A stretch of 64,000 nucleotides of DNA from Thermoprotei archaeon. GTDB lineage: Archaea; Thermoproteota; Thermoprotei; Thermoproteales; B15-G16. The notes beneath the pieces are model-generated. The model was not told the origin of the DNA. It ran no database searches and worked only from the letters and a program-made list of their open reading frames with translations. The stretch spans positions 96,001 to 160,000 of the forward strand of contig QMRC01000001.1 in the NCBI GenBank assembly GCA_003649205.1, written 5' to 3'. This document shows positions 3,828-58,491 of the stretch, in pieces; position 1 is the first letter of the stretch, and each line of letters begins with the position of its first letter. Position numbers and translations under genes: made by a program.

Positions 3828-3840
3828 GTAGGTGTTGTTT

Positions 3841-37001: not shown

Positions 37002-38513
37002 TTGAATATTTTGATAGTGGTGTCGTTACTAGTACCGATTTCAGCTAGAAACGTTGTATCATATCTATCTCTCACACTCTTGGTTACATGCATTTTTCTT
37101 GGGATATCTGGTCTCGTGGGTCTGCTCTATGGTGCTGCTATCGGATCTATTAAGGAGCTATACTCTGGGTCTGTACTATTTTTAGAAGGTACATTAAGTG
37201 CTATGTTGCTCTACCTAATCTACATATTTACAAGAATTGAGAGACCAATTACGGTCCTTGAGGCTTTTCTAATAGTCGTACTCACTTGGTTGATTTCACC
37301 ATTTATTGCTGCTGTACCCTTTGCTGTGATCTCGGGATTGCCCTTTCTTGATGCTATGTTTGAGGCAGTAAGTGGTTTAACAGGGACGGGATTGACAGTT
37401 ATGTCGCATGTAATAGAGCTTCAACCCGTATCTATTAAGCTTCTTCGTGGCTTCCTTCAGTGGTATGGTGAGATGGGTATTGCTGTTGCTGCGATAGCTA
37501 TATTCTCTAGACCAGGTACTGTAACAGCTCCTCTATACCTAGCTGAGGGTAGAGGTGGTAGAATTGAGGTTACTGTTAAGGGTACTGCACGGACGATACT
37601 CAGGATATACCTCGTATATACTCTCCTCTGTACACTAGCTCTCCTCCTCACGGGTATGACGCCTCTTGATGCATTTGTCCACAGTATGACTGCTGTTGCT
37701 ACAGGTGGCTTCAGTAACTGGCATGATAGCTTGAAGCACTACGCTGATCTCCTAGGACCAAGATTTCTACCTATGGAGGTAGCTGTGGTGCTCTTCATGA
37801 TACTGGGTGCAATTAGCTTCATAGATCATGCCAAGCTATTTAGAGGTGATGTCCGTGGCTTCTTCTCAATCGAGACAAACACCTTACTAATACTACTTGC
37901 GTTATCTTCATTATCAACAGTAGTAACGTACATGCTTGTAGATGGTGTTAGCACACCTAAAGCTATTGAGCTGGGGATCTTCCATGCTGTATCAGCACTT
38001 ACCACGACAGGATTCCAAATAGAAGATCTATGTAAGGTCAGTGATGCCACTAAGGTTATACTTGCTTTCTCAATGATAATAGGTGGCTGTACCTGCTCAA
38101 CAGTTGGTGGTATCAAGGTCTACAGACTCATTGTGCTACTGAAGTACCTTCAGTGGCTACTAAAGTCAACACTCTACCCATCTCACATACTCATTAAGAG
38201 GATTGTTGGTGGAAGAACTTTAACAGATGATGTAGTTGCTAGGGTAACCTCATTTACCTCACTGTACCTCTTCACACTACTCATAAGTAGCTCCATACTC
38301 ACAGCACTTGGCTACAGATTTGTTGATTCTTTCTTCGAAGTTGCTTCAGCTATGGGTTGTGTTGGTCTATCAGTTGGTATAACGTCACCACAACTACATC
38401 CTCTCGGTAAGGTTATCTTGATGGTGGATATGCTACTCGGTAAACTAGAGTTCTACCCATTTCTCGTAGCTACGTACGCTATGATCGGGAAGTTAAAGAC
38501 TAGAATTAGCTAG
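37002..38513 (+). CDS. trkH: Trk potassium uptake membrane subunit
   Basis: pore loops SGLTGTG, ATGGFS, TTTGF, STVGGIK, GCVGLS. Confidence 0.94.
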   Translation: MNILIVVSLLVPISARNVVSYLSLTLLVTCIFLGISGLVGLLYGAAIGSIKELYSGSVLFLEGTLSAMLLYLIYIFTRIERPITVLEAFLIVVLTWLISPFIAAVPFAVISGLPFLDAMFEAVSGLTGTGLTVMSHVIELQPVSIKLLRGFLQWYGEMGIAVAAIAIFSRPGTVTAPLYLAEGRGGRIEVTVKGTARTILRIYLVYTLLCTLALLLTGMTPLDAFVHSMTAVATGGFSNWHDSLKHYADLLGPRFLPMEVAVVLFMILGAISFIDHAKLFRGDVRGFFSIETNTLLILLALSSLSTVVTYMLVDGVSTPKAIELGIFHAVSALTTTGFQIEDLCKVSDATKVILAFSMIIGGCTCSTVGGIKVYRLIVLLKYLQWLLKSTLYPSHILIKRIVGGRTLTDDVVARVTSFTSLYLFTLLISSSILTALGYRFVDSFFEVASAMGCVGLSVGITSPQLHPLGKVILMVDMLLGKLEFYPFLVATYAMIGKLKTRIS

Positions 38514-39847
38514 ACTAGCTGTAGGTACTTCGTATACTCCCAATCACTAACTATATTCCACGTACTTTCCCAAGAACCAACTTCTCTCACGTACTCACTC
38601 CACTCAAGCTTCTTGATCCTCAGTATATGCTCATTGAATTCACGTGGAAAGTACTTGTAGAGTGGTGAATTCGTGTAAAGTATCATAGCGTGTTCTAGAT
38701 TTACCGGTAATTTCCTCTCAAAACTCACATCTACCTCATAAGCACTGGTGTATATTGGTGGATCTGGTTCAATTCTCTGCTCGAGAGCTAGCATTATCGA
38801 GTATACTACAGATGCCAGCCCTATGTACGGGTTGAAGGATGCATCAGGTAATCTGAACTCTATCCTAGTAGTTAACTGGTTTCCATAGTGAGGTACCCTA
38901 ACGAGAGCTGACCTATTACCTACACCCCACGTAATTGTTGTTGGTGCTTCATAACCAGGAACTAACCTCTTATACGAGTTCACGAGAGGAGCTACGAGAA
39001 AGCACATAGACTTAGCAAACTTAAGTAAACCACCGATAACCAACCTACCGATCTCTGTTAAGACGCCCCTTTCAAAGCATATATTCTCATCAGTATCTAG
39101 CCGATGTAGGCTGATATGTAGGTGAGCACCACTACCATTTAGACCCCAAAAAGGCTTTGGCATGAATGTAGCTACTAGACCGTACTTGTCGGTAACACAC
39201 CTAGCAATGTACCTGTGGATCACGATCTTATCAGCTAGCTTCAGAGCATCATCAAACTTTAAGTCAATTTCGTACTGACCAGGAGCTACCTCATGATGAA
39301 TCTTAAGTACCTTAAATCCACATCTACGAAGGTACTCAGCTATCTCCAAAACAACGTTCTCACACTTAGCAACAGGACCGACCTCAAAGTACCTACCTTC
39401 ATCAGCTGGGACAGGTCTACCATCAACTAGCTTAACTAGGAAGAACTCAAGCTCAACACCAACCTTGAGCCTCAATCCCTTCTCCTCCAACAACTTCAGT
39501 GCAGACCTAAGTACCTCACGAGAGTAGTTAGGAAGAGGCTTTCCCTCACCAACATAAACATCACAGATAACAGAAGCCACCCTATTACTCAACCACCACT
39601 CAGTGAAGAGAGTAGAGATATCAGGAACAGCATACACATCACTTTCATGTACTGAACGAAGACCGGGAATAGAGGAACCATCGAAACCAAATCCAGATCT
39701 AAAGATATCAATAGCTTCATCAAGTGGAACTAACTCACCCTTCAAACCACCATGAATATCCACAACAAGGAACCTAACGTATTTAATAGATAGCTTCCTC
39801 AAGAACTTAACAACTTCATCAACATCAGTAAATGCACCAATGCACAT
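38510..39847 (-). CDS. glnA: glutamine synthetase type I
   Basis: FDGSSI, HHEVAPGQYE, MPKP...NGSGAH, NSYKRLVPGYEAP, NRSALVR, RIEFR. Confidence 0.92.
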   Translation of the reverse strand: MCIGAFTDVDEVVKFLRKLSIKYVRFLVVDIHGGLKGELVPLDEAIDIFRSGFGFDGSSIPGLRSVHESDVYAVPDISTLFTEWWLSNRVASVICDVYVGEGKPLPNYSREVLRSALKLLEEKGLRLKVGVELEFFLVKLVDGRPVPADEGRYFEVGPVAKCENVVLEIAEYLRRCGFKVLKIHHEVAPGQYEIDLKFDDALKLADKIVIHRYIARCVTDKYGLVATFMPKPFWGLNGSGAHLHISLHRLDTDENICFERGVLTEIGRLVIGGLLKFAKSMCFLVAPLVNSYKRLVPGYEAPTTITWGVGNRSALVRVPHYGNQLTTRIEFRLPDASFNPYIGLASVVYSIMLALEQRIEPDPPIYTSAYEVDVSFERKLPVNLEHAMILYTNSPLYKYFPREFNEHILRIKKLEWSEYVREVGSWESTWNIVSDWEYTKYLQLV

Positions 39848-39930
39848 CGAGCCCTCACAGCAATAGCACGAAGAGCAATATATCGTTTTCTCAAAGTAGT
39901 GTAATGTAGTAGGCACGAACTAACCATGAA

Positions 39931-39945
39931 ATAAACCTATAAACC
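39931..39945 (+). promoter_or_regulatory. BRE/TATA-like promoter of tRNA-Ser
   Basis: AAACCTATAAA about 30 nt upstream of the mature tRNA 5' end. Confidence 0.5.
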
Positions 39946-39971
39946 CCCGAAGAAACTCAATGTCTTGAAGA

Positions 39972-40063
39972 GCCGGGGTGGCCGAGCCAGGTCTAAGGCG
40001 CGGGCCTTGAGAGCCCGTGGCCCCATGGGGGCCGCGTGGGTTCAAATCCCACCCCCGGCGCCA
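39972..40063 (+). tRNA. tRNA-Ser(UGA)
   Basis: GCCGGGG acceptor, CGGGC-CT-TGA-GA-GCCCG anticodon arm, long variable arm, TTCAAAT loop, G73 and encoded CCA. Confidence 0.96.
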
Positions 40064-41130
40064 ATTCTCATCCCTAACTCCTCAAGCAATCTCTCGTAGA
40101 ACTCCCTCGGCTGTAGTTCATAAAACTCATCCCTAGCTTCCTGAAATATGTGAAGCCTAATGTCGAGACATAGGTGACATTTCGAGACATAACCGTCCTT
40201 ACGCTCTCTATATCCATAGTTCTCAACAGCAAACCTATACAACTCACCCAATCCCTTAGTCAGAGCACGTAGAATGGGGTAGTTATCGAGGTCAAGACCA
40301 CTGAGAATATCCTCCAACCTCCTAGCATCACCAAGACTCAAACCAGCGCAGTAACCAGGTACATAGTTGAAGAAGCAATCCACATGAATGTGCCATGGTC
40401 TAGTCAAGTCGTAGAGACAGTTCTCATGGAAGAAGTACTTTGCAGGATACCTCTCGTAGATGTAGTTTAGCCTGTACACAGCTCTACCCATAGGGAGAAT
40501 GAGGTCAGGGCTAAGATACGTACCGTAGTCACTACCAATCAATGACAGGTAATCCTCAAACCTCAATCTACCCCTAACACCAAGCACCTTAAACTGATGG
40601 TAGTAGATAGGATAGAACACAATGACATTACCCTCACCAAAGACCTCTCTAGCAATCTCAACAGCAAGATCAATTCTCTCAAAAGGAACAAACTCAATAA
40701 CAAAAGGATTAACACTAATCAAGACACCATCAAGACCCCTATCATATAGCTCACGAAATCTCTCATAAACAACCTCACGACTAGTACACCAAAAGCAATT
40801 AGTCTCAACAAAGAGACCAGGAACACCAACATCCTTAGCAACCTCAACAGCACGAAGCAGGATATCGTACCTAAGAAAAGGTTCACCACCAGTTAAGTGA
40901 AGACCATAGTTAAGACCAAGCAACCTCCTCCTATGAAAGACCTCAGGAGGATAGTATAACCTAAAGCAAGAAACCAACTTCTCAAGAACAACCCTAAGAC
41001 CAGCAAGATCAATCCAGTAATCACACCACCTAGGAGAACAAACGTACATACAGTGCCTACACTCACAACAACACCTATACGTAAGGAAGACCCCAGCAGA
41101 CAAAGGAGGTCTAGGTCTAAGAAACTTCAT
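40042..41130 (-). CDS. radical SAM protein
   Basis: TYRCCCECRHC, LTGGEPFL, VETNCFW, C-terminal SKCHLC. Confidence 0.88.
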   Translation of the reverse strand: MKFLRPRPPLSAGVFLTYRCCCECRHCMYVCSPRWCDYWIDLAGLRVVLEKLVSCFRLYYPPEVFHRRRLLGLNYGLHLTGGEPFLRYDILLRAVEVAKDVGVPGLFVETNCFWCTSREVVYERFRELYDRGLDGVLISVNPFVIEFVPFERIDLAVEIAREVFGEGNVIVFYPIYYHQFKVLGVRGRLRFEDYLSLIGSDYGTYLSPDLILPMGRAVYRLNYIYERYPAKYFFHENCLYDLTRPWHIHVDCFFNYVPGYCAGLSLGDARRLEDILSGLDLDNYPILRALTKGLGELYRFAVENYGYRERKDGYVSKCHLCLDIRLHIFQEARDEFYELQPREFYERLLEELGMRIGAGGGI

Positions 41131-44756: not shown

Positions 44757-44907
44757 CTAAATGAACTATTTGATGAATCTAGCTTATTAATCGTTTCATA
44801 GATGAAGTTTATTTTTATGTCTAATCACACGAAAGGCACAATACTTGAAATTAGAACACTTTGTCATATAACAAATAGAGTATATAAAGTAGTAGTTTGG
44901 ATGTATT

Positions 44908-46878
44908 TTACCGCAGAAGATTTCTGATGTCTTCGGGAAGGGATTCAATATCGATACCCAGCTTTATTAATGTTTCCTTTTTTGGTAATCCTGTTTCAAG
45001 ATCCCAACCACGTTCATCATAGTAATCATCTTGAATTCTATGCAAGTCATCTGTAGTTAGCTGAATTATTCCATAGTAATCTCTCAATTCGATAATTCCC
45101 TCTGGAGTATTCATGGGTCTAAGCCATGTTTTTGGAACTTTATCATCCTCTCTTGTAAATCCTTCACGTGCATTGAGTAATCTATAGAGGTTAAATGCTC
45201 TCTCTCCACATCTCAGTAATTCTTCAGCGCTAATTTCTTTTCCAGTGGCTGCTGAATAGGCTTCAGCTAAGTCATCTATTCCAAAGAAGCCGAAGAATGT
45301 ATACATTGAGCACGTACCGAGACTGTTGTGAACCATCATTCCATCTTCCATGTATTTCGTGTACCTACCAACGTTAAATGCTCCACTATATGGTGTGAAC
45401 TGGAATATTTGTTCAAGTCTATCTTTAGGAATCCCCCAATGTTCAAACTGCTCCCTAATCTCTTTAAGTGGTCGTAATACTTGTGCTGTTTTTGTATGGC
45501 AACCCCCGTGATGAGGCCTTGGATTGACAACGAATGTGAACATTAGTGGATGTAATCTAGCAGGTCTAGCATCGTATATGAAATCAACGCCTTTATTTAT
45601 ACCTGCATACCAGTATTCCTGTGGATCTAGACCATATTTTTCTGCAACTCCAAGCCATCCTTCAGCTAGATCATTACCTACTCCCTTTCTTTCTATAACT
45701 TCATAGAATAACCTTAAGTAGCAATTCCAGTCTCTCCTTATTTCCTCACCTAGCTTATCTTTTGGAATTGCTCCCTCTACGACCTTCTTTGTAAAGAAAT
45801 CTACTAACCTAGTAAATGTATAGTAGTCTAGACCTTCTCTATTAGCTAGACAGACAAGGTATATCATCTTATTATAGTCCTCTATACCCCATAACATAGC
45901 ACTTGTTGCACTTTTACCATAAGGTGATCCTAACCCCCACCATCCCGCGTAATCACCTGTCTTTATCCTCCACTTTATTCTGCATGCAATCAAACATGTT
46001 GGACAAGCATATGTTCTCTCTAGAGTCTCGAGTCTCTTCTCTTCTCCGCACAATCTATCCCATTTATCCTTAGGCCATATACCGGGGTATTGTGTATGTT
46101 TAAATGTTCTCCAACCCGCACCCATACCGAGCTTTATCCAATGTGGTCTATACGACCATTCCATTATTCTCCTTCTAACCTCTAAGACCTTCTTCATAAA
46201 TCTATCAGGGTCGGCTACTGTAATACCTTTTCTAGATCCCTTAACAACTATTGCTTTCAATTTCTTGGATCCAAATATAGCTCCTACTCCATTCCTTCCT
46301 AAGCTATCTCTTTTATCAACAATTGCCATAGCGTATCTAACTAGATGCTCTCCGGCTTTCCCTATAGCTACTACTGAGGCACACTTATTGTGTCTTCGTC
46401 TAAGCTCGTCCGTAGTTTCGTAGATATTCTTCTTACCCCAAAGATCTGAGGCATCATGTATTTCAATATCGTTATCAATTATTTTAAGGTAAACAGGCTC
46501 CTCGGAAGCCCCTGTAATAACAAGTCCATCGTATCCAGCAAGTTTGAGTTCAAGTCCGAGGTTTCCACCAACTACAGACACTGCTATGAAGTGTTTGTAC
46601 TTACCATCTTTCTTACCTGCAATAATTGGTAATTTAGTGAGAGCAATGGTTTTAGTTGCGCTTGGAAACGGTGTTCCAACGAGAGCCCCAGTAAATATAA
46701 TTAACGGATTTTTAGCAGAGAATGGGTCTATTCCTGGAGGTATCATGTCTATTGCAAGTCTAATGGCATAACCCGCACCTCCAATGTACTTGTCTACTAT
46801 TGTGTGGTCTATCGATGTTTCCTTTATCTTCTTTTCTGTTAAATCAACCCAGAGGATTTTCCCCGCGTATAAGTGCAT
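44908..46878 (-). CDS. aor: tungsten-dependent aldehyde:ferredoxin oxidoreductase family protein
   Basis: GKILWVDL, LKLAGYDG, GSKKLKAI, CPTCLIAC, YYDERGWD...GLP. Confidence 0.93.
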   Translation of the reverse strand: MHLYAGKILWVDLTEKKIKETSIDHTIVDKYIGGAGYAIRLAIDMIPPGIDPFSAKNPLIIFTGALVGTPFPSATKTIALTKLPIIAGKKDGKYKHFIAVSVVGGNLGLELKLAGYDGLVITGASEEPVYLKIIDNDIEIHDASDLWGKKNIYETTDELRRRHNKCASVVAIGKAGEHLVRYAMAIVDKRDSLGRNGVGAIFGSKKLKAIVVKGSRKGITVADPDRFMKKVLEVRRRIMEWSYRPHWIKLGMGAGWRTFKHTQYPGIWPKDKWDRLCGEEKRLETLERTYACPTCLIACRIKWRIKTGDYAGWWGLGSPYGKSATSAMLWGIEDYNKMIYLVCLANREGLDYYTFTRLVDFFTKKVVEGAIPKDKLGEEIRRDWNCYLRLFYEVIERKGVGNDLAEGWLGVAEKYGLDPQEYWYAGINKGVDFIYDARPARLHPLMFTFVVNPRPHHGGCHTKTAQVLRPLKEIREQFEHWGIPKDRLEQIFQFTPYSGAFNVGRYTKYMEDGMMVHNSLGTCSMYTFFGFFGIDDLAEAYSAATGKEISAEELLRCGERAFNLYRLLNAREGFTREDDKVPKTWLRPMNTPEGIIELRDYYGIIQLTTDDLHRIQDDYYDERGWDLETGLPKKETLIKLGIDIESLPEDIRNLLR

Positions 46879-46898
46879 GATTCTCACCTCAAACCATT

Positions 46899-47123
46899 TT
46901 ACTCATATCGGAGAGCACCATATGGACAAGACTCTACACATTTAAGACATGAATCACATCCGTCTAGTATTTCTGCGTGTGGATTTCCTTCTTCATCTTC
47001 GTATATGCGTATGAAGGCCTTGCTAGGATTGAACTCGTGGAAGTGGTGGAAGGAACACATGAATTGACAAGTCCTACATATTCTGCAATTTTCCGGAACG
47101 AATATTATTCTTTTCTGACTCAT
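46899..47123 (-). CDS. 4Fe-4S ferredoxin-like AOR partner
   Basis: CRICRTCQFMC and CDSCLKCVESCPYGAL. Confidence 0.9.
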   Translation of the reverse strand: MSQKRIIFVPENCRICRTCQFMCSFHHFHEFNPSKAFIRIYEDEEGNPHAEILDGCDSCLKCVESCPYGALRYE

Positions 47124-47839
47124 CTTTCACCCTCCATCATCTTCTTATATTCCTCTATTATTTCTACACCAGAACTGGTACCTATTCTATCCGCTCCCGC
47201 TTCTATTACTTCCAGTGCTTGTTTTGCTGTCCTTATACCGCCAGCAGCTTTTATTTTGACTCTATTCCCTACTATTGACTTAATGAACCTCACATCTTCT
47301 GCCGTTGTTGGCCTCCACTTGTGGAATCCTTTGAATCCCGTTGAAGTTTTTATGTAGTGTACTCCAGCCTCAATAGCTAGTTCACAAGCTATTTTTATCT
47401 CCTCTTTAGTGAGGTATGGTACTTCGATAATTGCCTTTACTATGCGGCCTTTAGCAGCTTCTACTATTTTTTTAAGTTCTTCTCTTACTTCATCTATTTT
47501 ACCACTTTTTAAGGCACCTTTATTCAAGACAAAGTCTATTTCTACTTCATCAGCTCCATCCTTGATTGCTCTTTCAACTTCAAGTACCTTAAGCTCTATA
47601 GGAACTGTACCAAGAGGAAATCCTATTGCTGCTGTGATTTTCACTCCTGTTCCCTTGAGGATTTCTCTAGCAAGAGGTATCATCGCTGGATAAATTGCAA
47701 CAGATGCGAATCTGTACTTTTTTGCGTTTAGGAGGAATTTTATAAATTCATCTTCGCTGTCTGGAACAATTTTGAGGTATGTTTGATCTATTCTTTTCGC
47801 AAGTTCTTCCACAGACAGCTTGATCACTTTACTATTCAC
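47120..47839 (-). CDS. deoC: deoxyribose-phosphate aldolase family (canonical lysines)
   Basis: IGFPLG, IKTSTGF, IKAAGGIR, RIGTSS. Confidence 0.92.
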   Translation of the reverse strand: MNSKVIKLSVEELAKRIDQTYLKIVPDSEDEFIKFLLNAKKYRFASVAIYPAMIPLAREILKGTGVKITAAIGFPLGTVPIELKVLEVERAIKDGADEVEIDFVLNKGALKSGKIDEVREELKKIVEAAKGRIVKAIIEVPYLTKEEIKIACELAIEAGVHYIKTSTGFKGFHKWRPTTAEDVRFIKSIVGNRVKIKAAGGIRTAKQALEVIEAGADRIGTSSGVEIIEEYKKMMEGER

Positions 47840-48617
47840 CTCTTAGCTTTGATTTAGGATCTTCCTTAATCAATCTAATTACCCTTTCATATAAAAGTTC
47901 CTTTTTCTCCTCTGATAATGCTTCCCACGCTTTCTCGAGAGTATTGAAGACATCTTCTGGTGTGCTTGTTGCAATTCTATCGGCACCCGCTTCCAGCATG
48001 CTAAGAGCTATTTCAGCATTTCTAACACCGCCTGCAGCCATAACCTTTATTTTATCTCCGTAATTATCCTTGATAATCTTCACATGCTCAGGTAGCGTCT
48101 TTAACCCATAGCCGCTATTGGTTTTTATGAAATGAGCACCGGCCTCAATAGCGATCTTTGTAAATAGTTTTATTTCTTCAGGAGTCAGGAATGCTGTTTG
48201 TGGAATTACTTTGACAATTACGTTCTCGGATTCAGCTATCTTAACTATTCTTCTAATTTCCTCCTTTAACAGATCGTACTGACCAAACTTAAAGTAGTAC
48301 ATATTTACAGCAACGTCAAGCTCATTAGCTCCTTGCTCAATAGCCCATTTAGCTTGTTCAACTTTAATATCTGTTGGTATTCCTCCAGTAGGGTATGCGA
48401 TTGGTGCTACTACATCAATTTTTGTGCCTTTAAGCAGTTTCACAGCAAGAGGTATGTAGTATAGATCTACAGCTATTGCTGCATATGGATACTTCTTATG
48501 GTGTTCAATGAATTTTCTGACTTCCTCTTCAGTAGTATCGGGTTCTATCAGTGAGGTATCCATTATTCTAGCTAGGAGATCTACCGTGAGTTTATATTTA
48601 CTCCCCATAACGTACAC
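47832..48617 (-). CDS. divergent DeoC-family aldolase
   Basis: IAYPTG, ELDVAVN, IKTNSGY, VMAAGGVR, RIATS. Confidence 0.85.
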   Translation of the reverse strand: MYVMGSKYKLTVDLLARIMDTSLIEPDTTEEEVRKFIEHHKKYPYAAIAVDLYYIPLAVKLLKGTKIDVVAPIAYPTGGIPTDIKVEQAKWAIEQGANELDVAVNMYYFKFGQYDLLKEEIRRIVKIAESENVIVKVIPQTAFLTPEEIKLFTKIAIEAGAHFIKTNSGYGLKTLPEHVKIIKDNYGDKIKVMAAGGVRNAEIALSMLEAGADRIATSTPEDVFNTLEKAWEALSEEKKELLYERVIRLIKEDPKSKLRGE

Positions 48618-48701
48618 CCGAATGGGCTGTCTAGCTGTTAATAGTTGTGTGAAAAGGGTAGTTAAAGAAATATATGTGGATTTCTATCTTTGTCAACAAA
48701 G

Positions 48702-50261
48702 TTAGAAGATGTTGTACTTTAGTCCTACTTCAAATAGTTGCTTATAAATGGAATCGAGTGTTCTCCAGATGTTCTTATACACTTTGTATATCTCAGTGTA
48801 TATTTTGTGTGCTTCTGAATCAGGCTTCTCTACTGCTATATCTCTTATTAATTTTTCAACAATGCTGTAATCCTTGTAAATACCTACGCCAATACCAGCG
48901 GCAACTGCTGCAGCTAGGCAGTTTGCTTCTTGGAGTAGTTCTGGAACAAGTAGTTCTACTCCTAAGACATCTGCCATAATTTTTCTCCAGGTAGCATTTT
49001 GTGCACTACCACCTATTAACCTAATGAGTTCGATTTTTGCACCTTCTTCTCTGAAGATTTCTATGATTTCTCTCATTGTTAATGCTACTCCCTCCATTAT
49101 TGCTCTTATGAAGTGTTCTTTTCTATGGGCTAGCGTTAGGTTGAGGAAGCCTCCCTTTATGTAGCTCTTGTTGTGTGGTGCACCTCCACCCATTAGGTAC
49201 GGGAGAAATACTAGACCCCCACTTCCAATAGGTACTTGTTCAGCTTTAATCTGGATAACGTCATATATGCTGATACCAGCTCTCTCAGCTCCTTCCTTTT
49301 CTGATATCAGAAAATGCTCAATAAACCAGTCAATACTAGCTGAACCGCTGTGAGTGAATTGATGAGGAGTGTACTTTCCAGGTATCATGCTACATAACGT
49401 ACATATGCGGTACTGTGGACTTATCATTGGGGAGTTTGTGAATATCCCAGACCAGAAGGCTGTACCAGTACATATGTATGAGATACCCTCTTTGACAACG
49501 CCAGCACCGACTGCTGCAGCTGGTACGTCACCAGCACCCGCTACTACTGGTGTTCCTGGTTTTAGACCTGTTACTTTAGCAGCTTCATCAGTTACATAAC
49601 CGACAACATCATGAGACTCATAGAGATCAGGAAGCTTATCCATATCAATTCCCATGAATGAAACGACCTCTTCGTCCCATGTGCGCTTGTGAATATTGAG
49701 CATTCCGGTGTTTGATGCGTCAGTGTAGTCACTTGCTATCTTACCAGTTAATTTAAGCCTAATGTAATCCTTACATTGGATGAACTTATGTGTCTTCTCG
49801 TATATTTCGGAAAGATGCTTCTTTATCCATGCTATTTTAACAAGTGGATACATAGGTACAGCCATGCCAGAACCTGTTCTCTTGTAAAATTCTTCCCATC
49901 CAAAGTTTTTCTCAAGATGCTCACTTTCCTCAACAGCTCTCATGTCTTCCCATATAATGACTCTCTTCATTAAGAGATTACCTTCTTTATCTACAGGAAC
50001 AGCACCCATCATTTGTCCACTGAATGATATGGCTGCAATTTTTTCAGGTGGTATCTTCGTTTTCCTTAGGATATTCCTCGTAGACTCAACAACAGCCACC
50101 CACCATTCTTCAGGGCTCTGTTCGACCCATTGGGGTCTTACGTAATAGGTATTGTAACGTCTATACTCACGTGCAATAGCTCTTCCCTCGGTGTTGAATA
50201 GTACTGCTTTAACACCAGAGGTGCCAAGATCGTAAACTAGAAAATATTCCTTCTCTACCAT
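48702..50261 (-). CDS. FGGY-family carbohydrate kinase (xylulokinase-like)
   Basis: DLGTSGVK, FSGQM, DASNTG, GAGD, FLPYL, RAIMEG. Confidence 0.93.
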   Translation of the reverse strand: MVEKEYFLVYDLGTSGVKAVLFNTEGRAIAREYRRYNTYYVRPQWVEQSPEEWWVAVVESTRNILRKTKIPPEKIAAISFSGQMMGAVPVDKEGNLLMKRVIIWEDMRAVEESEHLEKNFGWEEFYKRTGSGMAVPMYPLVKIAWIKKHLSEIYEKTHKFIQCKDYIRLKLTGKIASDYTDASNTGMLNIHKRTWDEEVVSFMGIDMDKLPDLYESHDVVGYVTDEAAKVTGLKPGTPVVAGAGDVPAAAVGAGVVKEGISYICTGTAFWSGIFTNSPMISPQYRICTLCSMIPGKYTPHQFTHSGSASIDWFIEHFLISEKEGAERAGISIYDVIQIKAEQVPIGSGGLVFLPYLMGGGAPHNKSYIKGGFLNLTLAHRKEHFIRAIMEGVALTMREIIEIFREEGAKIELIRLIGGSAQNATWRKIMADVLGVELLVPELLQEANCLAAAVAAGIGVGIYKDYSIVEKLIRDIAVEKPDSEAHKIYTEIYKVYKNIWRTLDSIYKQLFEVGLKYNIF

Positions 50262-51220
50262 ATTTACTCACCTCCTTAAATTGTACTCAACTTATTAAAG
50301 ATTTCATTTAAGTTCCTGAATGATGACTTGAAGAGTTCATATAGCTTCTCATATATCTCCACGTTTTCTGGTGTGGGCTCAACAACTTTCTTTATCTTAA
50401 CGACCCTTTCTGCGGCCTCCTCATAGGATTTCCATAGGCCTACACCAATACCTCCCATGATTGCTGCTCCAATAGCTGTTGTGTCTTGAGGATTCTCTAG
50501 TACGATCATCTTCATGTTTAGAATATCTGCATGAATTTGCACCCATAGGTCACTTAGAGCGCCGCCTCCTATTGTCCTAAACTCTCCCCACTTACGTAGT
50601 GGTATGCCTGCTTCTTCGAACTGCTCAACTAACCATTTGAATGCAAAAGCTACTCCTTCGAGTACAGCTCTGTAGAAGTCAGCCCTCTTTGTATGTAGGG
50701 ACGTTATGCCTATAAATGCTCCTCTTGCATTAGGATTCCAGTGTGGACCTCCACCACCTGCAATGTATGGGATGAATATTAATCCACCACATCCAGGTTT
50801 AACTTCTCTAGCCTTTGATTCATAGACATCAAGAACTTTTATTCCTAAATTGCTTAGGATGCTTTCCTCTATACCTAGGAATGTGCTCTTAAACCAATCG
50901 ACTGATAGACCTCCTGCAGATATGTATGAGAACGGCGTGTACTTACCTGGAATCGCTGATAAGAAGTTGTTTATACGTGCCTTTGGGTCTAGTATCGGCT
51001 CATGAGAAAATGCTGCTAGCTGACTTGCTGTACCGATGTAGCAATAGGCTGTTCTCTCTTTGACAACGCCAGCACCCACCGCTGCGCAAATGCTATCACC
51101 TGATCCTGCTACTACTGGTGTTCCTGGTTTTAGACCTGTTACTTTAGCAGCTTCATCAGTTACATAACCGACAACATCATGAGACTCATAGAGATCAGGA
51201 AGCTTATCCATATCAATTCC
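49540..51220. repeat. 113-bp perfect direct repeat (49540-49652 and 51108-51220)
   Basis: identical by eye, GCTACTACTGG...ATATCAATTCC; lies inside both kinase genes. Confidence 0.9.
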
Positions 51221-51676
51221 TGCTGCTTCAAGGATTTCCTCAGAGTACTTTCTCTTCCTTACGTCTAGCCATCCCGTGTTTGAAGCTCCACCGTAGTCAC
51301 CTACGAACTTTCCTGTTAGCTTAAGTATTATGTAGTCCCACGTTTGTAGGAACTTGTATGTTCTGTTGTAGACTTCAGGTTCATTTTCCTTTAACCACAT
51401 TACTTTGGATATAGAGAGCATGCCTAGTGGGTGGCCGAGACCATGAATCTTGTAGAAATTCTCGTAACCTCCTAGCTTCTCTACAAGCTTCTTTCCTTGT
51501 TCTTCTGCTCTCAAATCCGCCCAAATCATTACGTACTTACGTACAACTCTACCTTCTTTATCTACGGGGACACATCCAGGGAAGTGCCCACTGAATGATA
51601 TGGCTGCAATTTTTTCAGGTGGTATCTTCGTTTTCCTTAGGATATTCCTCGTAGACTCAACAACAGCCACCCACCA
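50017..51676. repeat. 89-bp perfect direct repeat (50017-50105 and 51588-51676)
   Basis: identical by eye, CCACTGAATG...CCACCCACCA; lies inside both kinase genes. Confidence 0.9.
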
Positions 51677-51853
51677 GTCCTCGGGACACTGCTCAACCCA
51701 TAGGGGTCTAGGACGGTATGTTGGGTATGGTCTGAACTCTGAAGCAACAAGGTTACCCTCACTGTCTACTAGGACTGCTTTATCACCTGAGGTACCAAGG
51801 TCATGTGTTAAGATATATATCTCGTCCTTTCGAGGACTGGCCATCTCTACCAT
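50276..51853 (-). CDS. FGGY-family carbohydrate kinase (xylulokinase-like)
   Basis: DLGTSGDK, WADLR, ASNTG, GSGD, RAVLEG, GGGA. Confidence 0.93.
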   Translation of the reverse strand: MVEMASPRKDEIYILTHDLGTSGDKAVLVDSEGNLVASEFRPYPTYRPRPLWVEQCPEDWWVAVVESTRNILRKTKIPPEKIAAISFSGHFPGCVPVDKEGRVVRKYVMIWADLRAEEQGKKLVEKLGGYENFYKIHGLGHPLGMLSISKVMWLKENEPEVYNRTYKFLQTWDYIILKLTGKFVGDYGGASNTGWLDVRKRKYSEEILEAAGIDMDKLPDLYESHDVVGYVTDEAAKVTGLKPGTPVVAGSGDSICAAVGAGVVKERTAYCYIGTASQLAAFSHEPILDPKARINNFLSAIPGKYTPFSYISAGGLSVDWFKSTFLGIEESILSNLGIKVLDVYESKAREVKPGCGGLIFIPYIAGGGGPHWNPNARGAFIGITSLHTKRADFYRAVLEGVAFAFKWLVEQFEEAGIPLRKWGEFRTIGGGALSDLWVQIHADILNMKMIVLENPQDTTAIGAAIMGGIGVGLWKSYEEAAERVVKIKKVVEPTPENVEIYEKLYELFKSSFRNLNEIFNKLSTI

Positions 51854-52659
51854 CCCGTATACTACTTTCTTTTCATGTACTGAATCTTACGGATATATAA
51901 AGATTTTCGTTTCTACTATAAAAAGAGACGAAATTCGCATGATTTACATAGTTCTCACATGACTGTTTCTGTATAATTTGATAACTTTTCAATTTCATCA
52001 ATTAATCATTAGTATTCCTCTAGTTTCTCTTTAGTAGTATATGCTGTGTTACATCTAAATATCAATATACGGTTCTATCTGCTCCCTTTAGCATCTAAAT
52101 GTAATTATTGTTCAATTCTTTCACCACTATAGCTCGTGTATTAGGTATTGGCTATAATAAGGAACCTTTCAAGGAGTAATACCTGCTGTTCAAGCACTCT
52201 CTGAGGAGAGTACACATTGATGTTGAAATCGAAACTATCAAAACTATACCATTAAGCAAAACTATTCTAATTGAGTTGAGAATGAAGTGTAGGATTGAAT
52301 GTTTGTTAATGTTGCCTACATAAACACTGTTACTAGATACCGAACATTACTAGAATGTGGTTTTTAAAGGTATATGATTTTAGCTTAGGAATGAATATCT
52401 GCTGAGAAGTAAGTCATTAAAGTTATTGATAAGGTGCTAAAATATAACATGACACACTTACATTAGATTGATTACCACAACAAAGATCATAATAACGACG
52501 TAGTTGTGCTTACAGATCTCGGTAACTATTTTTGTACTATGTAATAACTTTTTAACTAACTTTAATTAACACTTATTAGCAAAAGAAAAATTGAAAAATT
52601 TTTAAATAAAAGTGGCTCTACAACCAGTTACCGATCAGGTTAATAAGGGGTATACGGAT

Positions 52660-53952
52660 ATGTCGATCCTAGAGTTCATAGTAAATCTCTTTAGACAACC
52701 AGCGCTATTCATAGGGATCATAGCTTTAATAGGTTACCTACTAATGAAAGAAGACATAAACAAGACCATAATAGGATCCATAAAAGCTGCTGCAGGGCTT
52801 GCCATCCTATTATGGGGCGTAGGCTTTATGTTTCAAGGATTACAACCAATAGGCACCGTACTAGCAAAAACAGTTGGAGTAAAGCCTCTTGAAGTGACTG
52901 TCGGTACGAGTAAGATCATACGTCAGTACGGTACTGAGATAGGTATAGCTATGATAGTGATGTTCTTAACGAATCTATTCTTAGCAAGAGTAACTAAGAT
53001 GAAATATATATACCTAACGGGCCAGTTATATCTATTTGTTACATGGATTCTAACAGGCATCTTTGCATATACTTGGGGCCTTTCTGGAATACCACTGGCA
53101 CTTGTAGTAGGAGTTGTTTCCGGTATATACGTAACGATCCAACAATGGTATACAGCAAAATTTGCGCTCGCTATTAATCCTAAAAAGGATTACGTCCTAG
53201 GACACATATGTTCACTAGGTGTATTGATAACATCATTGATCTTCACAAAAGGAGGAAAACAGCTCGAAAGGCCATCACATGTTAGAAGTATGGAGGAGAT
53301 GACCTTACCAAAGAAATTACAGTGGATAGGAGAGACAACAGGCCTACTCTTTGTGCTGTTCCTAGTAATTTACTTAGTACTGATAGGATTAAACTACCCA
53401 GAATGTCTTAAACTGGCAACAGCTGCTGGCATGCATCCTGTTGTATGGGCAATCATGCAATCACTAACATTTACAGCAGGCTTCGCTGTTCTCATATTAG
53501 GCGTTCAGCTTCTTGTAGAGAACTTAATTCCTGCCTTTAAAGGTATAGCGTTGAAACTAGTTCCCGGTGCATTGCCTGGTCTTGATGTTCCAATGTTCTA
53601 TGTATTTGCACCAAAGACCACTGCGATCACAGGCGTAATTGGAATAATAGCACAAGTGGCGTTTGCTCTCATAGTCATGGCGCTAGGATACCCCTACTTC
53701 ATCTTTGCTCCTTCAGCGTGGGTATGGTTCCATGCAGCATGTGCCGGAGTATTTGGGAATCACTTCGGAGGAATAAGGGGTGCCATCACGGGTGCCATCA
53801 TTACAGCCTTGCTCATGGTTATAGGACAAATGATATTGACCCCAATACTGGGGCCTATAATAGGAGATTACTTCATGTGGGGCGGCGATCCTGACCTCCA
53901 AATATATGGCAGCATTATAGCGTGGCTAGGTAAGATGGTTACGGGACACTAG
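52660..53952 (+). CDS. ulaA: PTS ascorbate-family IIC permease (UlaA/SgaT-like)
   Basis: QPALFIGIIALIG, KYIYLTGQ, LGH, LIPAFKGIALKLVPGALPGLDVP, GVFGNHFGGIRGA. Confidence 0.88.
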   Translation: MSILEFIVNLFRQPALFIGIIALIGYLLMKEDINKTIIGSIKAAAGLAILLWGVGFMFQGLQPIGTVLAKTVGVKPLEVTVGTSKIIRQYGTEIGIAMIVMFLTNLFLARVTKMKYIYLTGQLYLFVTWILTGIFAYTWGLSGIPLALVVGVVSGIYVTIQQWYTAKFALAINPKKDYVLGHICSLGVLITSLIFTKGGKQLERPSHVRSMEEMTLPKKLQWIGETTGLLFVLFLVIYLVLIGLNYPECLKLATAAGMHPVVWAIMQSLTFTAGFAVLILGVQLLVENLIPAFKGIALKLVPGALPGLDVPMFYVFAPKTTAITGVIGIIAQVAFALIVMALGYPYFIFAPSAWVWFHAACAGVFGNHFGGIRGAITGAIITALLMVIGQMILTPILGPIIGDYFMWGGDPDLQIYGSIIAWLGKMVTGH

Positions 53953-54135
53953 CTATTACTTCAAAGCTTTGTTATATTTTTTACAAATTTTTAAGTCCTC
54001 TTAAGCAATTCCAAAACGCCTTCGAAGTGTTTTTGTTCATAGTATCGAGGTTAAAGCCTCAATACCTCCTAATCTTCTTCCATAAAGTTTTTATACCTTT
54101 AAGTGAAAGTCGAGTAGCTCTCGGAGGGTACATTA

Positions 54136-54813
54136 ATGGTACTGTGCATTATCTTTGATTTTGATGGAACACTTGTAAATACAAATGCTATACAGATTTC
54201 AATACTGGAAAATATCTTCAAAGAGTATCGTCTTGGTTCAAGGGAAATCTTATTGAGATACTTTGGGTTAAGAACTCAGGATTTCTTTGAAAAAGTACTA
54301 CCGGATGCAAGTGAAGAATTGAGAAGTAAGTTAGTTAATAAATTTTTAAGCGAGTATAAGAGGAGAGTTTTACTTGAAGCGGAGGTATTTCCAGACGTTA
54401 TTCCCACATTAGAGTCATTAAAGAACTATGATATAAAGATTGCAATTGCAACGTCTTCTCCGAAATCAATAGTTGAGCCTCTTCTCACTAAGACTAAACT
54501 AATTCAATTTGTAAATTACTATGTTACTGGGGACGATGTGGAACATGGTAAACCACATCCAGAAAGTGTATTTAAGATTCTTAACGTATTCAATATTCCA
54601 CCTAGTAGGTGCATTGTGGTAGGAGATACATTTTTTGATGTAAAGATGGCAAAGAATGCTCATTGTAAAGCGGTTCTCATAGTAAGAACCCCAATTTTTA
54701 TTTTCTCGTCAGAAGCACCTCTTCCAGATGTCATAATACCGAGGTTGCAAGATCTTATTTGGGTTATAAGGGAATGGTTTCCAGAAGAACTACTACCGCA
54801 TAAGCGAAAGTAG
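54136..54813 (+). CDS. HAD-superfamily hydrolase
   Basis: FDFDGTL, ATSS, KPHPE, VGDT..D. Confidence 0.9.
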   Translation: MVLCIIFDFDGTLVNTNAIQISILENIFKEYRLGSREILLRYFGLRTQDFFEKVLPDASEELRSKLVNKFLSEYKRRVLLEAEVFPDVIPTLESLKNYDIKIAIATSSPKSIVEPLLTKTKLIQFVNYYVTGDDVEHGKPHPESVFKILNVFNIPPSRCIVVGDTFFDVKMAKNAHCKAVLIVRTPIFIFSSEAPLPDVIIPRLQDLIWVIREWFPEELLPHKRK

Positions 54814-54924
54814 GTAACTACATTATATATGTACCCATTGCTATGTCATTGCGACTCTTATAGTTACGTATTTATGCATTACGATTTCCTTAAATACTGA
54901 AAAGAGTTCTTCAACTATACTCTA

Positions 54925-55150
54925 TTGCAGACTGATCTAAAAGTAGGGGTAGTTAATAGAACAGGTCTCCAGATAAGATCTGCTGTACTCTTTGTTGATA
55001 TGTATCAAAAATTTGAAGTCAGATATAAGGGTAATTCAGGGAAAAAAGCTAACGCTAAAACATACTTCAAGTCCTTACTCTGGGAGTCGATATGAGTAAC
55101 AAAAGTAACAAAAATAGTGCAAAGGTAATGATTAGAGAGGTCTTGTAATG
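54925..55150 (+). pseudogene. ptsH: HPr phosphocarrier remnant
   Basis: VVNRTGLQIRSAVLFV..YQKF / SDIRV..GKK / ANAK / ILQVLTLGV, compare HPr GLHARPA...NAKSI; frameshifts, and His15 position reads Gln. Confidence 0.7.
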
Positions 55151-55429
55151 AGTATGGATTATGGATGATGTTTATTTTTCATAATGATTCTTGCTACAAT
55201 ATTAATTTACTCTTTTCAACTGTTCTAGAACCTAGCTAGTTAGGTTACTAAAGTCTCTTATCTAAAAGATTACTTTCATTTGTGTTAAAGACCATACGAG
55301 GTAATTTAGCTAGACTCTACGTCGATAAGATTTAGTAGAGCTCCATTACAGATACAGATAAAGAACTATCAGGTGTTTAGCTGTAAATGCACAGGCTAAT
55401 GTCTATGTTAGTTTAGTCGTGTTATACCC

Positions 55430-55695
55430 TGAATAGAGTTCTTTAACATTTTTACCTGTAATTTTCATCGACTGAATTCTTCAATCCTACAGTTATCTTT
55501 ACACGCTCTCTGAGTTCTGGTTCATGAAGTATTGAAGCAGTAACCATATCCGCTCTGCTGCTTTTGCAGTCAATAACTCTATAGCTTTGATTTTGCTGGA
55601 ATCTCTATTTCTTCAATCACACCTTCAACAAAATATCCTCATGATTGGTGGGCTTTTCTGTTCAACACCGCAAATAGTTAAAACTTGAATGATTT
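55430..55695 (-). pseudogene. PTS EIIB (UlaB-like) remnant
   Basis: IQVLTICGVEQKSPPIMRIF / VEGVIEEIEIPAKI / ADMVTAS...VGLKN, compare UlaB ILAVCGNGQGSSMIMKM. Confidence 0.65.
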
Positions 55696-55799
55696 AGTGA
55701 GTTTGTAGGCGTATTTAGAGCATCATAAGCAACTTAAATTTAACTACTATATAAGGAGTGGAGAAGTAGGGGTTGCTATTGATTACTTACTATCGATTA

Positions 55800-56975
55800 T
55801 ATGTTAAGAACCTCTTAGTACTGGTCTAGTAGGTCTTTGAGTAGCCACATTATAAGGCTGCTTCTTTCCGACCTCCGGAGGGATTACCAAATATAGCTAC
55901 TGCTTCGCTTAGGAAGAATAGCATCTTCATCAATAGCACTATTATTGTGAACCTTGTAAAGAAGAATATTGCCATGAATATCAAGAATATAGTGAGTCCA
56001 CTCACAAACTCTATGACTATAGTTACTGGTGTTCATGGGAAGACAACTGGACAGTCTAGTACTAGTTAGCTCTTGGTATGATTTTCATAGCTAAACCCCT
56101 GAAGGCTGGTATGACCTCAGCTATGAACATCTTAACTCTGGTTAGTAGTACAATGATTGATGTAGCGAAGTACACACCTTTCAGGGATGCCCATGTACTG
56201 GATTGAGTTACCTTGCAAGTCCCTACACTTTAGCTGGGTTTATGAAGTATCCTGTAATGGATGTCATTACCATTATAAGTCCAAAGCCTTCAGAGAACTT
56301 AATTTCGTCTATACTTTCTTCTAGCTAGCTAACGTACTCACCTAGCATATAAGCTAGGTGAGCAGCGAGAGAACTAGTATTTCCATGAGTTATTTCATCT
56401 GTATTTATAATGGTTCTCATAACTCTGTTTAGGTATGCTGGCTGAATACTTTAGTACAGTGTTATGACTATGAACCCTATAGCTACCAACTGCTATGGAG
56501 GAATATTTGGGCCTATAGTTAGTTTGGTAATGTTACTACTACAGTTAGTGAGACTCACCGCACTAAGTGACCTGTTGAGTAAACGAATTTCATGGGTGTG
56601 AATTTGGCAGTGAATAGACGAATTATGAATCCTAAGTCATTATTATAGCTGTGTAGCTTCTGTACTTAGCTATTAAATCGCTTATAAGCTAACATAGTCA
56701 AGTGGGTATTTAGGAGTTAAACCTGCAACGCTACCTAATAGATTCTGGAGGTTTTTCTGGAAATTTATTAGCTCTTGAACGAATAATGTTGCTCTAGTAG
56801 TTGTTATTCCTACTCCTCCATTACTTTGGATGTACTGATGATAGCATTGCTAAAAGGTTTTCTGAATCATAAACCTAGTGAAACCTACTAGACCTAGCAG
56901 TATTATCGGTTGACCAATACTATGTTTCTAGCTATCCAGACGAGTACATCAAGCACTTCTAGATTCTTCTCTCAG
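55800..56975 (-). pseudogene. second UlaA-like PTS IIC, heavily decayed
   Basis: fragments GQPIILLGLVG, AKFTPMKFVYSTGH, VKMFIAEVIPAFRGLAMKIIP, LDCPVVFP, AIFGNPSGG, with many stops and frameshifts. Confidence 0.8.
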
Positions 56976-57244
56976 AAATTTTCCTATATACAATTCCCTA
57001 TGTGTGGTAATGATAGAATAGTAAGTTTCCATTTTAGTAAATAATGTTTAGTAAAGTGGGCTCGGGATGTTAACCTGTAAGGAATTGCAAAACAGATTTA
57101 AAGGGTTTAAATTCTGTGTAGTTAGTATCTCACTATGCCGCTTGTACCTAAAGAGACCCTATAATGTAGGTGCTTTTAAACACAGTAGCAAGTGAAATAA
57201 CGCAAAACACAAATAAACACAATTTCTTATACTCACACGGGCGA

Positions 57245-57335
57245 GCCGGGGTGGCCTAGCCTGGTCCATGGCGGCGGCCTGCTAAGCCGCTGGGGCAGTG
57301 GCCCCGCCCGGGTTCAAATCCCGGCCCCGGCGCCA
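57245..57335 (+). tRNA. tRNA-Ser(GCU)
   Basis: GCCGGGG acceptor, GCGGC-CT-GCT-AA-GCCGC, long variable arm, TTCAAAT, G-CCA. Confidence 0.96.
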
Positions 57336-57734: not shown

Positions 57735-58142
57735 ATGCCTTGTGAACGATATATTGACTGGCTGGATGAAGCTCTCGATGATTATGGTACTGCTGAGGAT
57801 CTCTTTCGGCTAGGTAGGTACAGTAAGACCTGTTTCTTCTGTCATCAAGCATGTGAAAAAGCTCTCAAGGCTTTACTAATCAAGAGAGCTGGTCGCTATG
57901 TACCGATACATAGTGTTGCTGAGTTACTTAGGATTGCTGCTTCGATCACTAATGTACCTAGTGAGTTAGTTAGAAAGGGTGATGTCTTGGATCGATTCTA
58001 CATACCTACCAGGTACCCTAATGCATGGCCTTCAGGTGCACCCTACAAGCACTACACTAGGGAGGATGCTGAGTTAGCTCTTAGATATGCAAGGGAGGTG
58101 CTCGAGTTTGTTAAGAGAGAGATTGAGAGAGATTCTAGCTAG
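57735..58142 (+). CDS. HEPN-domain protein
   Basis: CFFCHQACEKALKA, IHS, YIPTRYP. Confidence 0.9.
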   Translation: MPCERYIDWLDEALDDYGTAEDLFRLGRYSKTCFFCHQACEKALKALLIKRAGRYVPIHSVAELLRIAASITNVPSELVRKGDVLDRFYIPTRYPNAWPSGAPYKHYTREDAELALRYAREVLEFVKREIERDSS

Positions 58143-58491
58143 AGTGAGTTCTCTCGATCTTCTTGACGACTTGGTGAAAGTTCTGGAGGACTTAGTGAGG
58201 AGCTATAGACCTCTCTCTATCATTATTGCTGGTTCTCTTGCGAGAGGGGACTTCATTAGGGGGTTGAGTGATATTGATGTTCTAGTTATTGTTGGGTACT
58301 CTGTTGATAAGTTTAGTAGATTTCTGTTGAGAGCTGTTGATGAGGTTGATGTTGAGATTACGGTGTTTAGTCTTGAGGAGGTTATTGAGTGTATTGAGAG
58401 AGGTAATGAGTTTGTGATTGATGCTCTTGTACGTGGTTGTGAAGTATATGGTAATCTACGGGGTGTACTGCTTAGATATGTCAAGCGTTAA
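58087..58491 (+). CDS. minimal nucleotidyltransferase (MNT); start uncertain
   Basis: GSLARGD...SDIDVLVI; paired with HEPN. Confidence 0.88.
   Translation: MQGRCSSLLRERLREILARVSSLDLLDDLVKVLEDLVRSYRPLSIIIAGSLARGDFIRGLSDIDVLVIVGYSVDKFSRFLLRAVDEVDVEITVFSLEEVIECIERGNEFVIDALVRGCEVYGNLRGVLLRYVKR

Follow-up and report, generated by a model that had tools for sequence, protein, structure and literature searches.

The DNA analysed here, referred to below as the window, is a stretch of 64,000 nucleotides (G000:C1:96001-160000) from the genome under study, a Thermoprotei archaeon (G000) whose assembly comprises 2.07 Mb in 31 contigs, is 93.79% complete and carries an estimated contamination of 4.24%. 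Between the gene of a HAD-family hydrolase and a tRNA-Ser(GCT) gene (57245..57335, plus strand; ARAGORN, Rfam 51.4 bits), the window contains 2431 nt (54814-57244) in which no open reading frame (ORF) exceeds 56 aa, and within this gene-free stretch, at 54919-56977, lie three pseudogenes of a phosphotransferase system (PTS): an HPr on the plus strand, and an Asc/Gat-type IIB and an Asc/Gat-type IIC on the minus strand. One kb upstream of these fossils is an intact Asc/Gat-type IIC gene (52612..53952, plus strand), which matches PF03611 with 228.3 bits over profile positions 1-384 of 394. The segment 54919-56977 is very probably the non-functional, decayed remnant of an Asc/Gat-superfamily PTS module that is separate from the lineage of the intact IIC.

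The three fossil genes

A sequence-only reading of this DNA had proposed that the ORF-free 2.4 kb holds remnants of HPr, IIB and IIC; the strings that it quoted were recovered in a six-frame reading, and frameshift-aware alignment confirmed the three remnants at 41%, 46% and 57% identity, respectively. These protein-to-DNA alignments were made with our own script (BLOSUM62, gap -6, frameshift -9, stop -5), with the proteins of an intact PTS in a Desulfurococcaceae metagenome-assembled genome (MAG; locus L016, JAWBAI010000006.1) as references, and their significance was measured against shuffled queries (n=5 for IIC, n=40 for IIB and n=40 for each HPr). The intact archaeal loci used for comparison were found by an alignment-based locus search of genome contigs, as single-protein queries with the intact IIC and with P0033 gave no loci. 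Over the three fossils, alignment to the L016 proteins counts about 11 in-frame stops and 14 frameshifts.

The IIC fossil (55853..56977, minus strand) is recognised by PF03611 (EIIC-GAT), by tblastn and by frameshift-aware alignment. Three of its minus-strand pieces score 37.1, 29.8 and 26.0 bits, above the Pfam cut-off of 24.2 bits, and the stops inside these pieces are two TAG, two TAA and one TGA. The L016 IIC matches the window by tblastn at E 2.5e-62 in colinear pieces that fall in three frames, and 65 homologues of the intact IIC likewise give colinear matches in three frames. In the frameshift-aware alignment, residues 1-383 of the 433 in the L016 protein lie on 56977..55853 with 207/364 positions identical (57%), 9 stops and 8 frameshifts, and the score is 814, where shuffled queries average 46 +/- 6.5 (z=117); where the last ~50 residues would lie (55727-55852), nothing is alignable any more. 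The fossil matches the EIIC-GAT profile, but it has no uninterrupted frame (~9 stops, ~8 frameshifts). Its closest likeness is to a group of IICs termed here clade A (L016, G091, G097, Thermococcus and Baldrarchaeota), against which the fossil region reaches summed scores of 311, 271, 263, 263 and 234 bits, while the best IIC outside clade A reaches no more than 194. The GC content of the fossils is 0.35-0.38, as opposed to 0.41-0.44 for the intact IIC and the two kinase genes of the window, and the intact HAD gene is also low at 0.353. A DNA search for the fossil stretch in 40 relatives gave no match outside G000.

The IIB fossil (55432..55726, minus strand; Asc/Gat/Lac type) was located by tblastn with the L016 IIB, itself a PF02302 member (5.7e-11), which matches in two halves at E 1.6e-9 and 2.4e-5 when the window is searched and at 8.8e-10 when the whole genome is. 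It aligns to this protein with 44/96 residues identical (46%), two stops and ~4 frameshifts (z=29.7, 40 shuffled queries), and these lesions deprive it of an uninterrupted frame. Of 76 IIB queries, 39 hit at E<1, with 32 of the 55 matches falling within 55600-55699. The cysteine codon that had been read at 55670-55672 is indeed kept (55672-55670 on the coding strand), in a loop that has changed from CGVGQGSS to CGVEQKSP.

The HPr fossil (54919..~55160, plus strand) is recognised through a partial PF00381 match and by frameshift-aware alignment. Its second half, NILQVLTLGVDMSNK, is colinear with the first, reads in a different frame because one base has slipped in a run of A at 55059, and gives a weak colinear tblastn match with the L016 HPr. 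Over 54919..55103, 24 of 59 residues are identical to the L016 HPr (41%) with no stops and two frameshifts, and 26 of 77 (34%) are identical to the genome's own HPr; alignments to real HPr proteins reach z=12.8-14.2 (40 shuffles each). Frameshifts number two to three (about 55016, 55047/48 and the A-run at 55059); towards its C-terminus the fossil aligns poorly. The active-site histidine (His15, GLHARPA) has been replaced by glutamine (GLQIRSA), both in the window and in the variant from a second study described below. Judged from its sequence, the HPr fossil is a relic of a PF00381 member and no longer a member.

It might be argued that errors of assembly or sequencing produced the stretch without ORFs, or that the resemblances arise by chance, as the assembly is metagenome-derived, has 4.24% estimated contamination and includes a palindromic-looking contig, C3. 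This is extremely improbable, given that ~25 lesions lie in 2 kb while all flanking genes are open, that the fossil alignments reach z-scores of 13-117 against shuffles, that an identical contig was produced by another assembler, and that part of the fossil recurs in a second study. The contig from the other assembler (run X1) covers 52500-57333 with 0 differences; X1 is probably the source sample, so this contig is not independent data. From the second study (X2), a 183-nt contig with a depth of 2.2 covers 54924-55105. The HPr fossil is present in it too, and differs from that of the window by one substitution (A>G at 55007) and by a G inserted after position 55047. With this G, KSDIRVIQGKK and ANAK share a frame, so the X2 allele has one frameshift fewer, although it too is disrupted and has glutamine in place of the histidine; given the depth of 2.2, the inserted G may reflect either an allele that has decayed less or an error in a read. 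Read-through of the stops by recoding is unlikely, because all three stop codons occur together with many frameshifts.

In contig C3 itself (291,428 nt), every match was found doubled, on opposite strands and with coordinates summing to 291,429 (for example 38374-40299 and 251130-253055). This contig looks like a perfect palindrome and is probably an assembly artefact, in which case the contamination and duplication estimates would be inflated.

Intact phosphotransferase genes and the decay of the module

A complete mannose-family PTS (EI, HPr, IIA, IIB and IIC-IID), with all genes open, is found on the same contig, 25-30 kb downstream of the fossil. Profile searches place a three-domain EI of 585 aa at ~178.4-180.2 kb of G000:C1 and an HPr of 92 aa at G000:C1:183206-183445 (PF00381, 95.7 bits, 1.1e-27), with a IIB-sorbose (1.7e-39), a fused IIC-IID (EII-Sor + EIID-AGA) and an EIIA-man (94.5-94.7 bits) between them, and with a GlmS-like gene flanking EI on the opposite side. 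The phosphorelay parts, which the sequence-only reading took to have decayed, are thus present in intact form at ~178-183 kb of C1, as EI, HPr and a complete mannose-type EII. A 156-aa minus-strand ORF in the same locus has no Pfam, NCBIfam or PDB match and was set aside as a shadow of the plus-strand EIIA-man gene. In addition, an intact pair of SIS_2 (308 bits) and NagA (423 bits) genes lies amid housekeeping genes on contig C3.

The picture is different for the partners that an Asc-type IIC would be expected to use. A search of the 2.07-Mb assembly with PF00359 (IIA) gave no matches at E<=1, the best match to PF02302 (IIB) has an E of 0.5, and tblastn with 161 IIA-like and 136 IIB-like ORFs, taken from the IIC loci described below, found the fossil and, in each set, one further match of chance level (E=0.003). 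As fused proteins had distorted our own IIA profile (695 columns), the absence of IIA is taken from tblastn and PF00359. The intact IIC is a true orphan, with no Asc-type IIA or IIB gene found in an assembly that is 93.79% complete.

The fossil module is arranged as an HPr gene convergent on an IIC-IIB pair; it probably became dispensable in G000 and then decayed through point mutations and small indels. An island in genome G091 (L171) combines a mannose-type and a clade A Asc-type PTS with EI, HPr, NagA, SIS_2 and a GlmS-like gene, and its IIC is 77% identical to that of L016; such a double system may resemble the state of the G000 ancestor before the Asc part decayed. The fossil module was probably an amino-sugar PTS, because its intact counterparts cluster with NagA and an SIS_2 sugar isomerase, and the frequent linkage of archaeal PTS modules to NagA and SIS_2 suggests amino-sugar uptake more generally.

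Several points weigh against the interpretation of 54919-56977 as the remnant of a full PTS module. The IIB fossil went undetected by Pfam on the open pieces and by the PF02302 genome search, and a general IIB profile scores it at 5 bits, so that its identification depends on close archaeal relatives. The HPr fossil scores 21.8 bits against PF00381 (E 1.9e-4, profile positions 4-44 of 81), which is under the cut-off of 23 bits, and all frameshift counts are estimates obtained with a mild frameshift penalty (-9). The gene order differs from that of the reference locus, where IIB is on the opposite strand. Remnants of EI, NagA and SIS_2 were sought in the window and none were found, nor was a IIA remnant found on either strand of the gaps 55100-55460, 56950-57244, 51854-52611 and 53953-54135 (z -2.6 to 1.9); the ancestral module at this site may therefore never have been complete. 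Finally, redundancy as the cause of decay is something we infer from the retained mannose-family PTS and NagA/SIS_2 pair. Even with these points taken into account, decay of a former Asc/Gat-type module is the reading that we prefer.

The orphan IIC and its neighbourhood

The intact IIC gene has an ORF of 446 aa (430 aa in the database gene call) and shares 31.6% identity with the L016 IIC and ~35% with the fossil pieces, of which it is not a copy. Its nearest homologues, 41-46% identical and termed clade B, come from bacteria (Dictyoglomaceae, Anaerolineae, Chloroflexota and Coprothermobacteraceae) and from archaea, namely one Thermoplasmata MAG and, from the class to which G000 belongs, three genomes (G094, G064 and G066). 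Among 65 matches in a 5.8-billion-sequence collection (8000 candidates scored), the nearest protein is 45% identical; no relative closer than 46% was found, and a DNA search for 44900-54900 in the same-genus genome G001 (71% complete) gave no match. In a quick IQ-TREE analysis of 40 IICs out of 136 distinct sequences, for which branch support was by SH-like approximate likelihood ratio test (SH-aLRT) only, and in which the ~96 sequences outside the tree are mostly from Bacillota, the intact IIC is sister to clade B (SH-aLRT 100). The distinct clades of the fossil and the intact IIC indicate two systems, one wholly decayed and the other stripped to its permease. The intact IIC stands apart from the wreck and belongs to a second lineage of the Asc type, in which the relatives have IIA and IIB genes of their own, and the fossil HPr and IIB, which had been proposed as its lost partners, instead sit with a clade A IIC of their own.

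How unusual the loss of partners is can be seen from 136 fetched IIC loci (a few of which overlap on one contig, with flanks of 5-7 kb or ended by the contig), where a IIB-like ORF is present in 133 and a IIA-like ORF in 127. An SIS_2 gene is present at 107 of these Asc-type loci and NagA at 17, which is a poor fit to the usual 'ascorbate' name. In clade B, IIA adjoins IIC at 8/8 loci and a detectable IIB lies within ~2 kb at five of the eight. This regular pairing, together with the intact EI and HPr of G000 and an assembly that is 93.79% complete in 31 contigs, could suggest that the IIC is still PTS-coupled, through IIA and IIB encoded in an unassembled part of the genome or through EI and HPr acting via an unrecognised partner. 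The place where clade B relatives carry IIA is, however, occupied in G000 by a HAD-family phosphatase gene directly downstream of IIC (54136..54813, plus strand; PF13419 9.3e-41, with no NCBIfam equivalog at cut-off), and no IIA remnant is present in any of the leftover gaps (z<2). The IIA and IIB of the mannose family are unrelated in sequence to those of the Asc type, and we know of no case of cross-family coupling of mannose-type IIA/IIB to an Asc-type IIC, which also counts against retained coupling. We therefore consider it quite improbable that the IIC still has PTS partners. The sequence-only reading had itself named an intact EI, HPr and EIIAB elsewhere, serving this IIC, as grounds against its proposal; EI and HPr do exist, but the only intact IIA and IIB are of the non-homologous mannose family.

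The intact IIC is also the only long end branch in the tree, with 1.2 substitutions per site as opposed to ~0.65-0.75 for clade B tips measured from the same node. At 85 columns that are >=90% conserved in 127 IICs outside clade B, it shows seven unique losses, compared to one to three in each clade B member. One of the seven is the family-conserved histidine of transmembrane helix 4a (TM4a), uniquely Gln in this protein, which aligns to His135 of UlaA, a substrate-binding residue (PMC6048161). Of the other UlaA residues listed there, Gln139 corresponds to Phe in the intact IIC, and the equivalents of Asp314 and His194 are kept. The exchange of the TM4a histidine for glutamine is compatible with a changed substrate or coupling.

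These features, and the presence of wrecks as neighbours on one side, may also be what would be expected of a dying gene, orphaned and not yet struck by a stop or a frameshift. The state of the gene speaks against this: the ORF is open over its full length and covers Pfam positions 1-384 of 394 with 228 bits, and with a GC content of 0.424 it resembles the two kinase genes and not the fossils (0.35-0.38). Substitutions also avoid conserved columns. The intact IIC keeps 118 of 192 columns that are invariant in clade B (61%), while it matches the majority residue at 81 of 224 variable columns (36%), a difference which argues that constraint has shaped this branch. Where conservation across all sequences of the set is >=90% (70 columns), the intact IIC has 14 deviations, the same as clade B members (11-14). 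We read the intact IIC as being under shifted or partly relaxed constraint and not in free decay, and we regard it as unlikely that the gene is dying. The possibility of relaxed selection, which the sequence-only reading had likewise named as grounds against its proposal, holds to the extent of some acceleration (branch of 1.2 vs ~0.7; seven losses vs one to three), but not for the frame, which is fully open.

Upstream of the intact IIC is a same-strand cluster, all on the minus strand, of two xylulokinase-like FGGY sugar kinases (kinase 2, 50276..51853; kinase 1, 48702..50261), a tandem pair of deoxyribose-phosphate aldolases (DERAs; 47832-48617 and 47120-47839) and, as its last gene, an aldehyde:ferredoxin oxidoreductase (AOR; 44908..46887). 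Both kinases have FGGY_N and FGGY_C domains and pass the cut-off of 380 bits of TIGR01312 (XylB), kinase 2 with 389 bits and kinase 1 with 387; the DERAs score 176 and 226 bits against TIGR00126 (cut-off 117), and the AOR matches AFOR_N at 3.1e-65 and AFOR_C at 3.5e-54. The co-directional cluster is divergent from the IIC, with the kinases 758 nt away, and the sequence-only reading was right to describe the IIC as an intact gene next to ATP-dependent kinases, which are of the FGGY type. In the flanks of the other IIC loci, no FGGY homologue was found (0/136). DERA is present in 83 of 120 genomes of the class. The best relative of the DERA2 of the window, at 60% identity (next best, 51%), is within a PTS cluster of genome G067, where the gene order is IIB-DERA-DERA-AOR fragment-IIB-luciferase-like-IIC-regulator-HPr-like, with EI, HPr and NagA beside the cluster and no FGGY kinase in 20 kb. 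This arrangement indicates that the same catabolic module is PTS-fed in G067 and kinase-flanked in G000.

It is possible, and our tentative proposal, that the intact IIC transports its sugar independently of phosphorylation, by uniport or ion symport. This transfers to the orphan IIC alone the idea that the sequence-only reading had put forward. In such a case, free sugar would be phosphorylated by the FGGY kinases and cleaved by the two DERAs, and the aldehyde would be oxidised by the AOR, so that a PTS permease would have been turned into a carrier-plus-kinase route. This proposal is consistent with the lack of Asc-type IIA and IIB in the assembly as opposed to their near-regular presence at other IIC loci (IIB-like 133/136, IIA-like 127/136), with a kinase adjacency seen at none of 136 loci elsewhere, and with the closest relative of DERA2 being in a PTS-linked, FGGY-free cluster. 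It also agrees with an IIC that is open over 446 codons, as opposed to ~1 stop per 40 codons in the fossil IIC, with the stronger matching of invariant than of variable columns (61% vs 36%), and with the TM4a glutamine, which, as the equivalent of a UlaA substrate-binding residue (PMC6048161), would be compatible with a changed substrate or coupling. A precedent exists in the proposal made for orphan Gat-family IICs of Bacteroides (PMC6281302).

On the other side, the kinase adjacency is divergent and not co-directional and could be accidental, the long branch and seven unique losses could equally mean decay, and the assembly is 93.8% complete. To our knowledge, no IIC of the superfamily has been shown experimentally to act without IIB, which likewise counts against a carrier. 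Taking the fossil and the orphan together, we suggest with similar reserve that two Asc-type modules were acquired, of which one rotted while the permease of the other may now be a carrier that feeds the FGGY x2-DERA x2-AOR pathway; the modules would have been horizontally acquired, and the same pathway would still be PTS-fed in G067.

Several further observations concern genes of this neighbourhood. The divergent intergenic region (51854-52611, 758 nt) has a GC content of 0.297. Over 755 nt, the two FGGY kinase genes in tandem show 73% identity, yet they share exact stretches of 113 and 89 nt (49540-49652 = 51108-51220 and 50017-50105 = 51588-51676), which suggests patches of gene conversion between these paralogues. 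In G067, the AOR (L175, G067:C1:207000-226900; 6880-7275) is a fragment of 131 aa that is 61% identical to residues 417-554 of the window AOR and is possibly a pseudogene, and L175 also contains an SIS_2 fragment at 3730-3882. At the other end of the gene-free stretch, no repeated tRNA fragment indicative of an integration site was found at the tRNA-Ser gene, which is directly followed by a gene pair with a 56-nt overlap (57735-58491) encoding HEPN (1.5e-32) and nucleotidyltransferase (2.2e-7) proteins; by its domains, this pair has the look of a HEPN-MNT toxin-antitoxin system.

Comparison with known systems

PTS genes have been described in a crenarchaeal genome, that of Thermofilum pendens, which carries a PTS transporter (PMC2678158). 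The PTS had been called rare in archaea by the sequence-only reading; within this class it is patchy and not near-absent, with HPr in 17 of 120 genomes (7/39 genera), including the same-genus genome G001, and EIIC-GAT in 8 of 120 (3/39 genera) and in none of 40 relatives in the order. Asc/Gat- and mannose-type modules alike are patchy in the class and are also found in several other archaeal lineages. A literature search on PTS pseudogenes or orphan IICs in Thermoproteota, with most subscription journals outside its reach, found nothing. PTS pseudogenes are ordinary in themselves, and for orphan Asc/Gat IICs the carrier idea is on record; new at this locus are an orphan IIC whose nearest relatives keep IIA in 8/8 cases, a kinase adjacency seen at none of 136 other IIC loci, and the comparison with the PTS-linked DERAs of G067. 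If the IIC is a carrier, the long-proposed change of an Asc/Gat IIC into a secondary carrier would have, at this locus, a natural pair open to comparison, and the carrier hypothesis can be tested directly with two or three cloned genes.

The closest counterparts of the fossil module are the intact systems of L016 and G091, which have the same three components and, in the case of L016, proteins with 57% (IIC), 46% (IIB) and 41% (HPr) identity to the fossils. In L016, a single cluster holds IIC, IIB, SIS_2, EIIA_2, NagA (TIGR00221, 344 bits), HPr and EI, each with an open frame and a score over the Pfam/NCBIfam cut-offs, and intact clade A modules with EIIA, EI, NagA and SIS_2 are found in L016, L019, G091, G097, Thermococcus (L020) and Baldrarchaeota (L029). 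The fossil differs from L016 and G091 in that its genes are all broken and no IIA, EI, NagA or SIS_2 lies beside them. Its IIC and IIB point the same way, as they do in Thermococcus L020 and Baldrarchaeota L029, while its HPr is convergent on IIB, as opposed to L016, where HPr is upstream of IIC. In one clade A locus (L019/L142, Desulfurococcaceae UBA285, DADP01000035.1, 1610-2899), the IIC is split into ORFs of 182 and 192 aa, although it aligns end to end by tblastn with 80% identity, and it may be frameshifted or a MAG assembly error.

The intact IIC belongs to the same superfamily (PF03611) as UlaA of the E. coli UlaABC system (SgaTBA; UlaA structures 4RP8/4RP9 and 5ZOV), to which it aligns over residues 15-400 (E 4e-19) at low identity, with the Asp314 and His194 equivalents kept. 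The likeness to UlaA and UlaB that had been noted from the sequence holds at this family level, but it does not extend to the ascorbate equivalog NF006919, against which the protein scores 293 bits with a cut-off of 380. Glutamine replaces the His135 equivalent, the annotated neighbours include no ula catabolic genes, and the relatives associate with NagA and SIS_2 and not with ulaDEF.

The Bacteroides orphans of the Gat family (IIC homologues, TC 4.A.5.1.4), for which a role as secondary carriers has been proposed (PMC6281302), are like the G000 protein in being Asc/Gat-superfamily IICs without cognate phosphoryl-transfer partners, and in the control genome of B. thetaiotaomicron PF03611 matches while HPr does not. 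The G000 IIC is different in that it is archaeal, in that its genome has an EI and an HPr serving another PTS, and in that it adjoins both sugar kinases and the wreck of a second Asc-type system.

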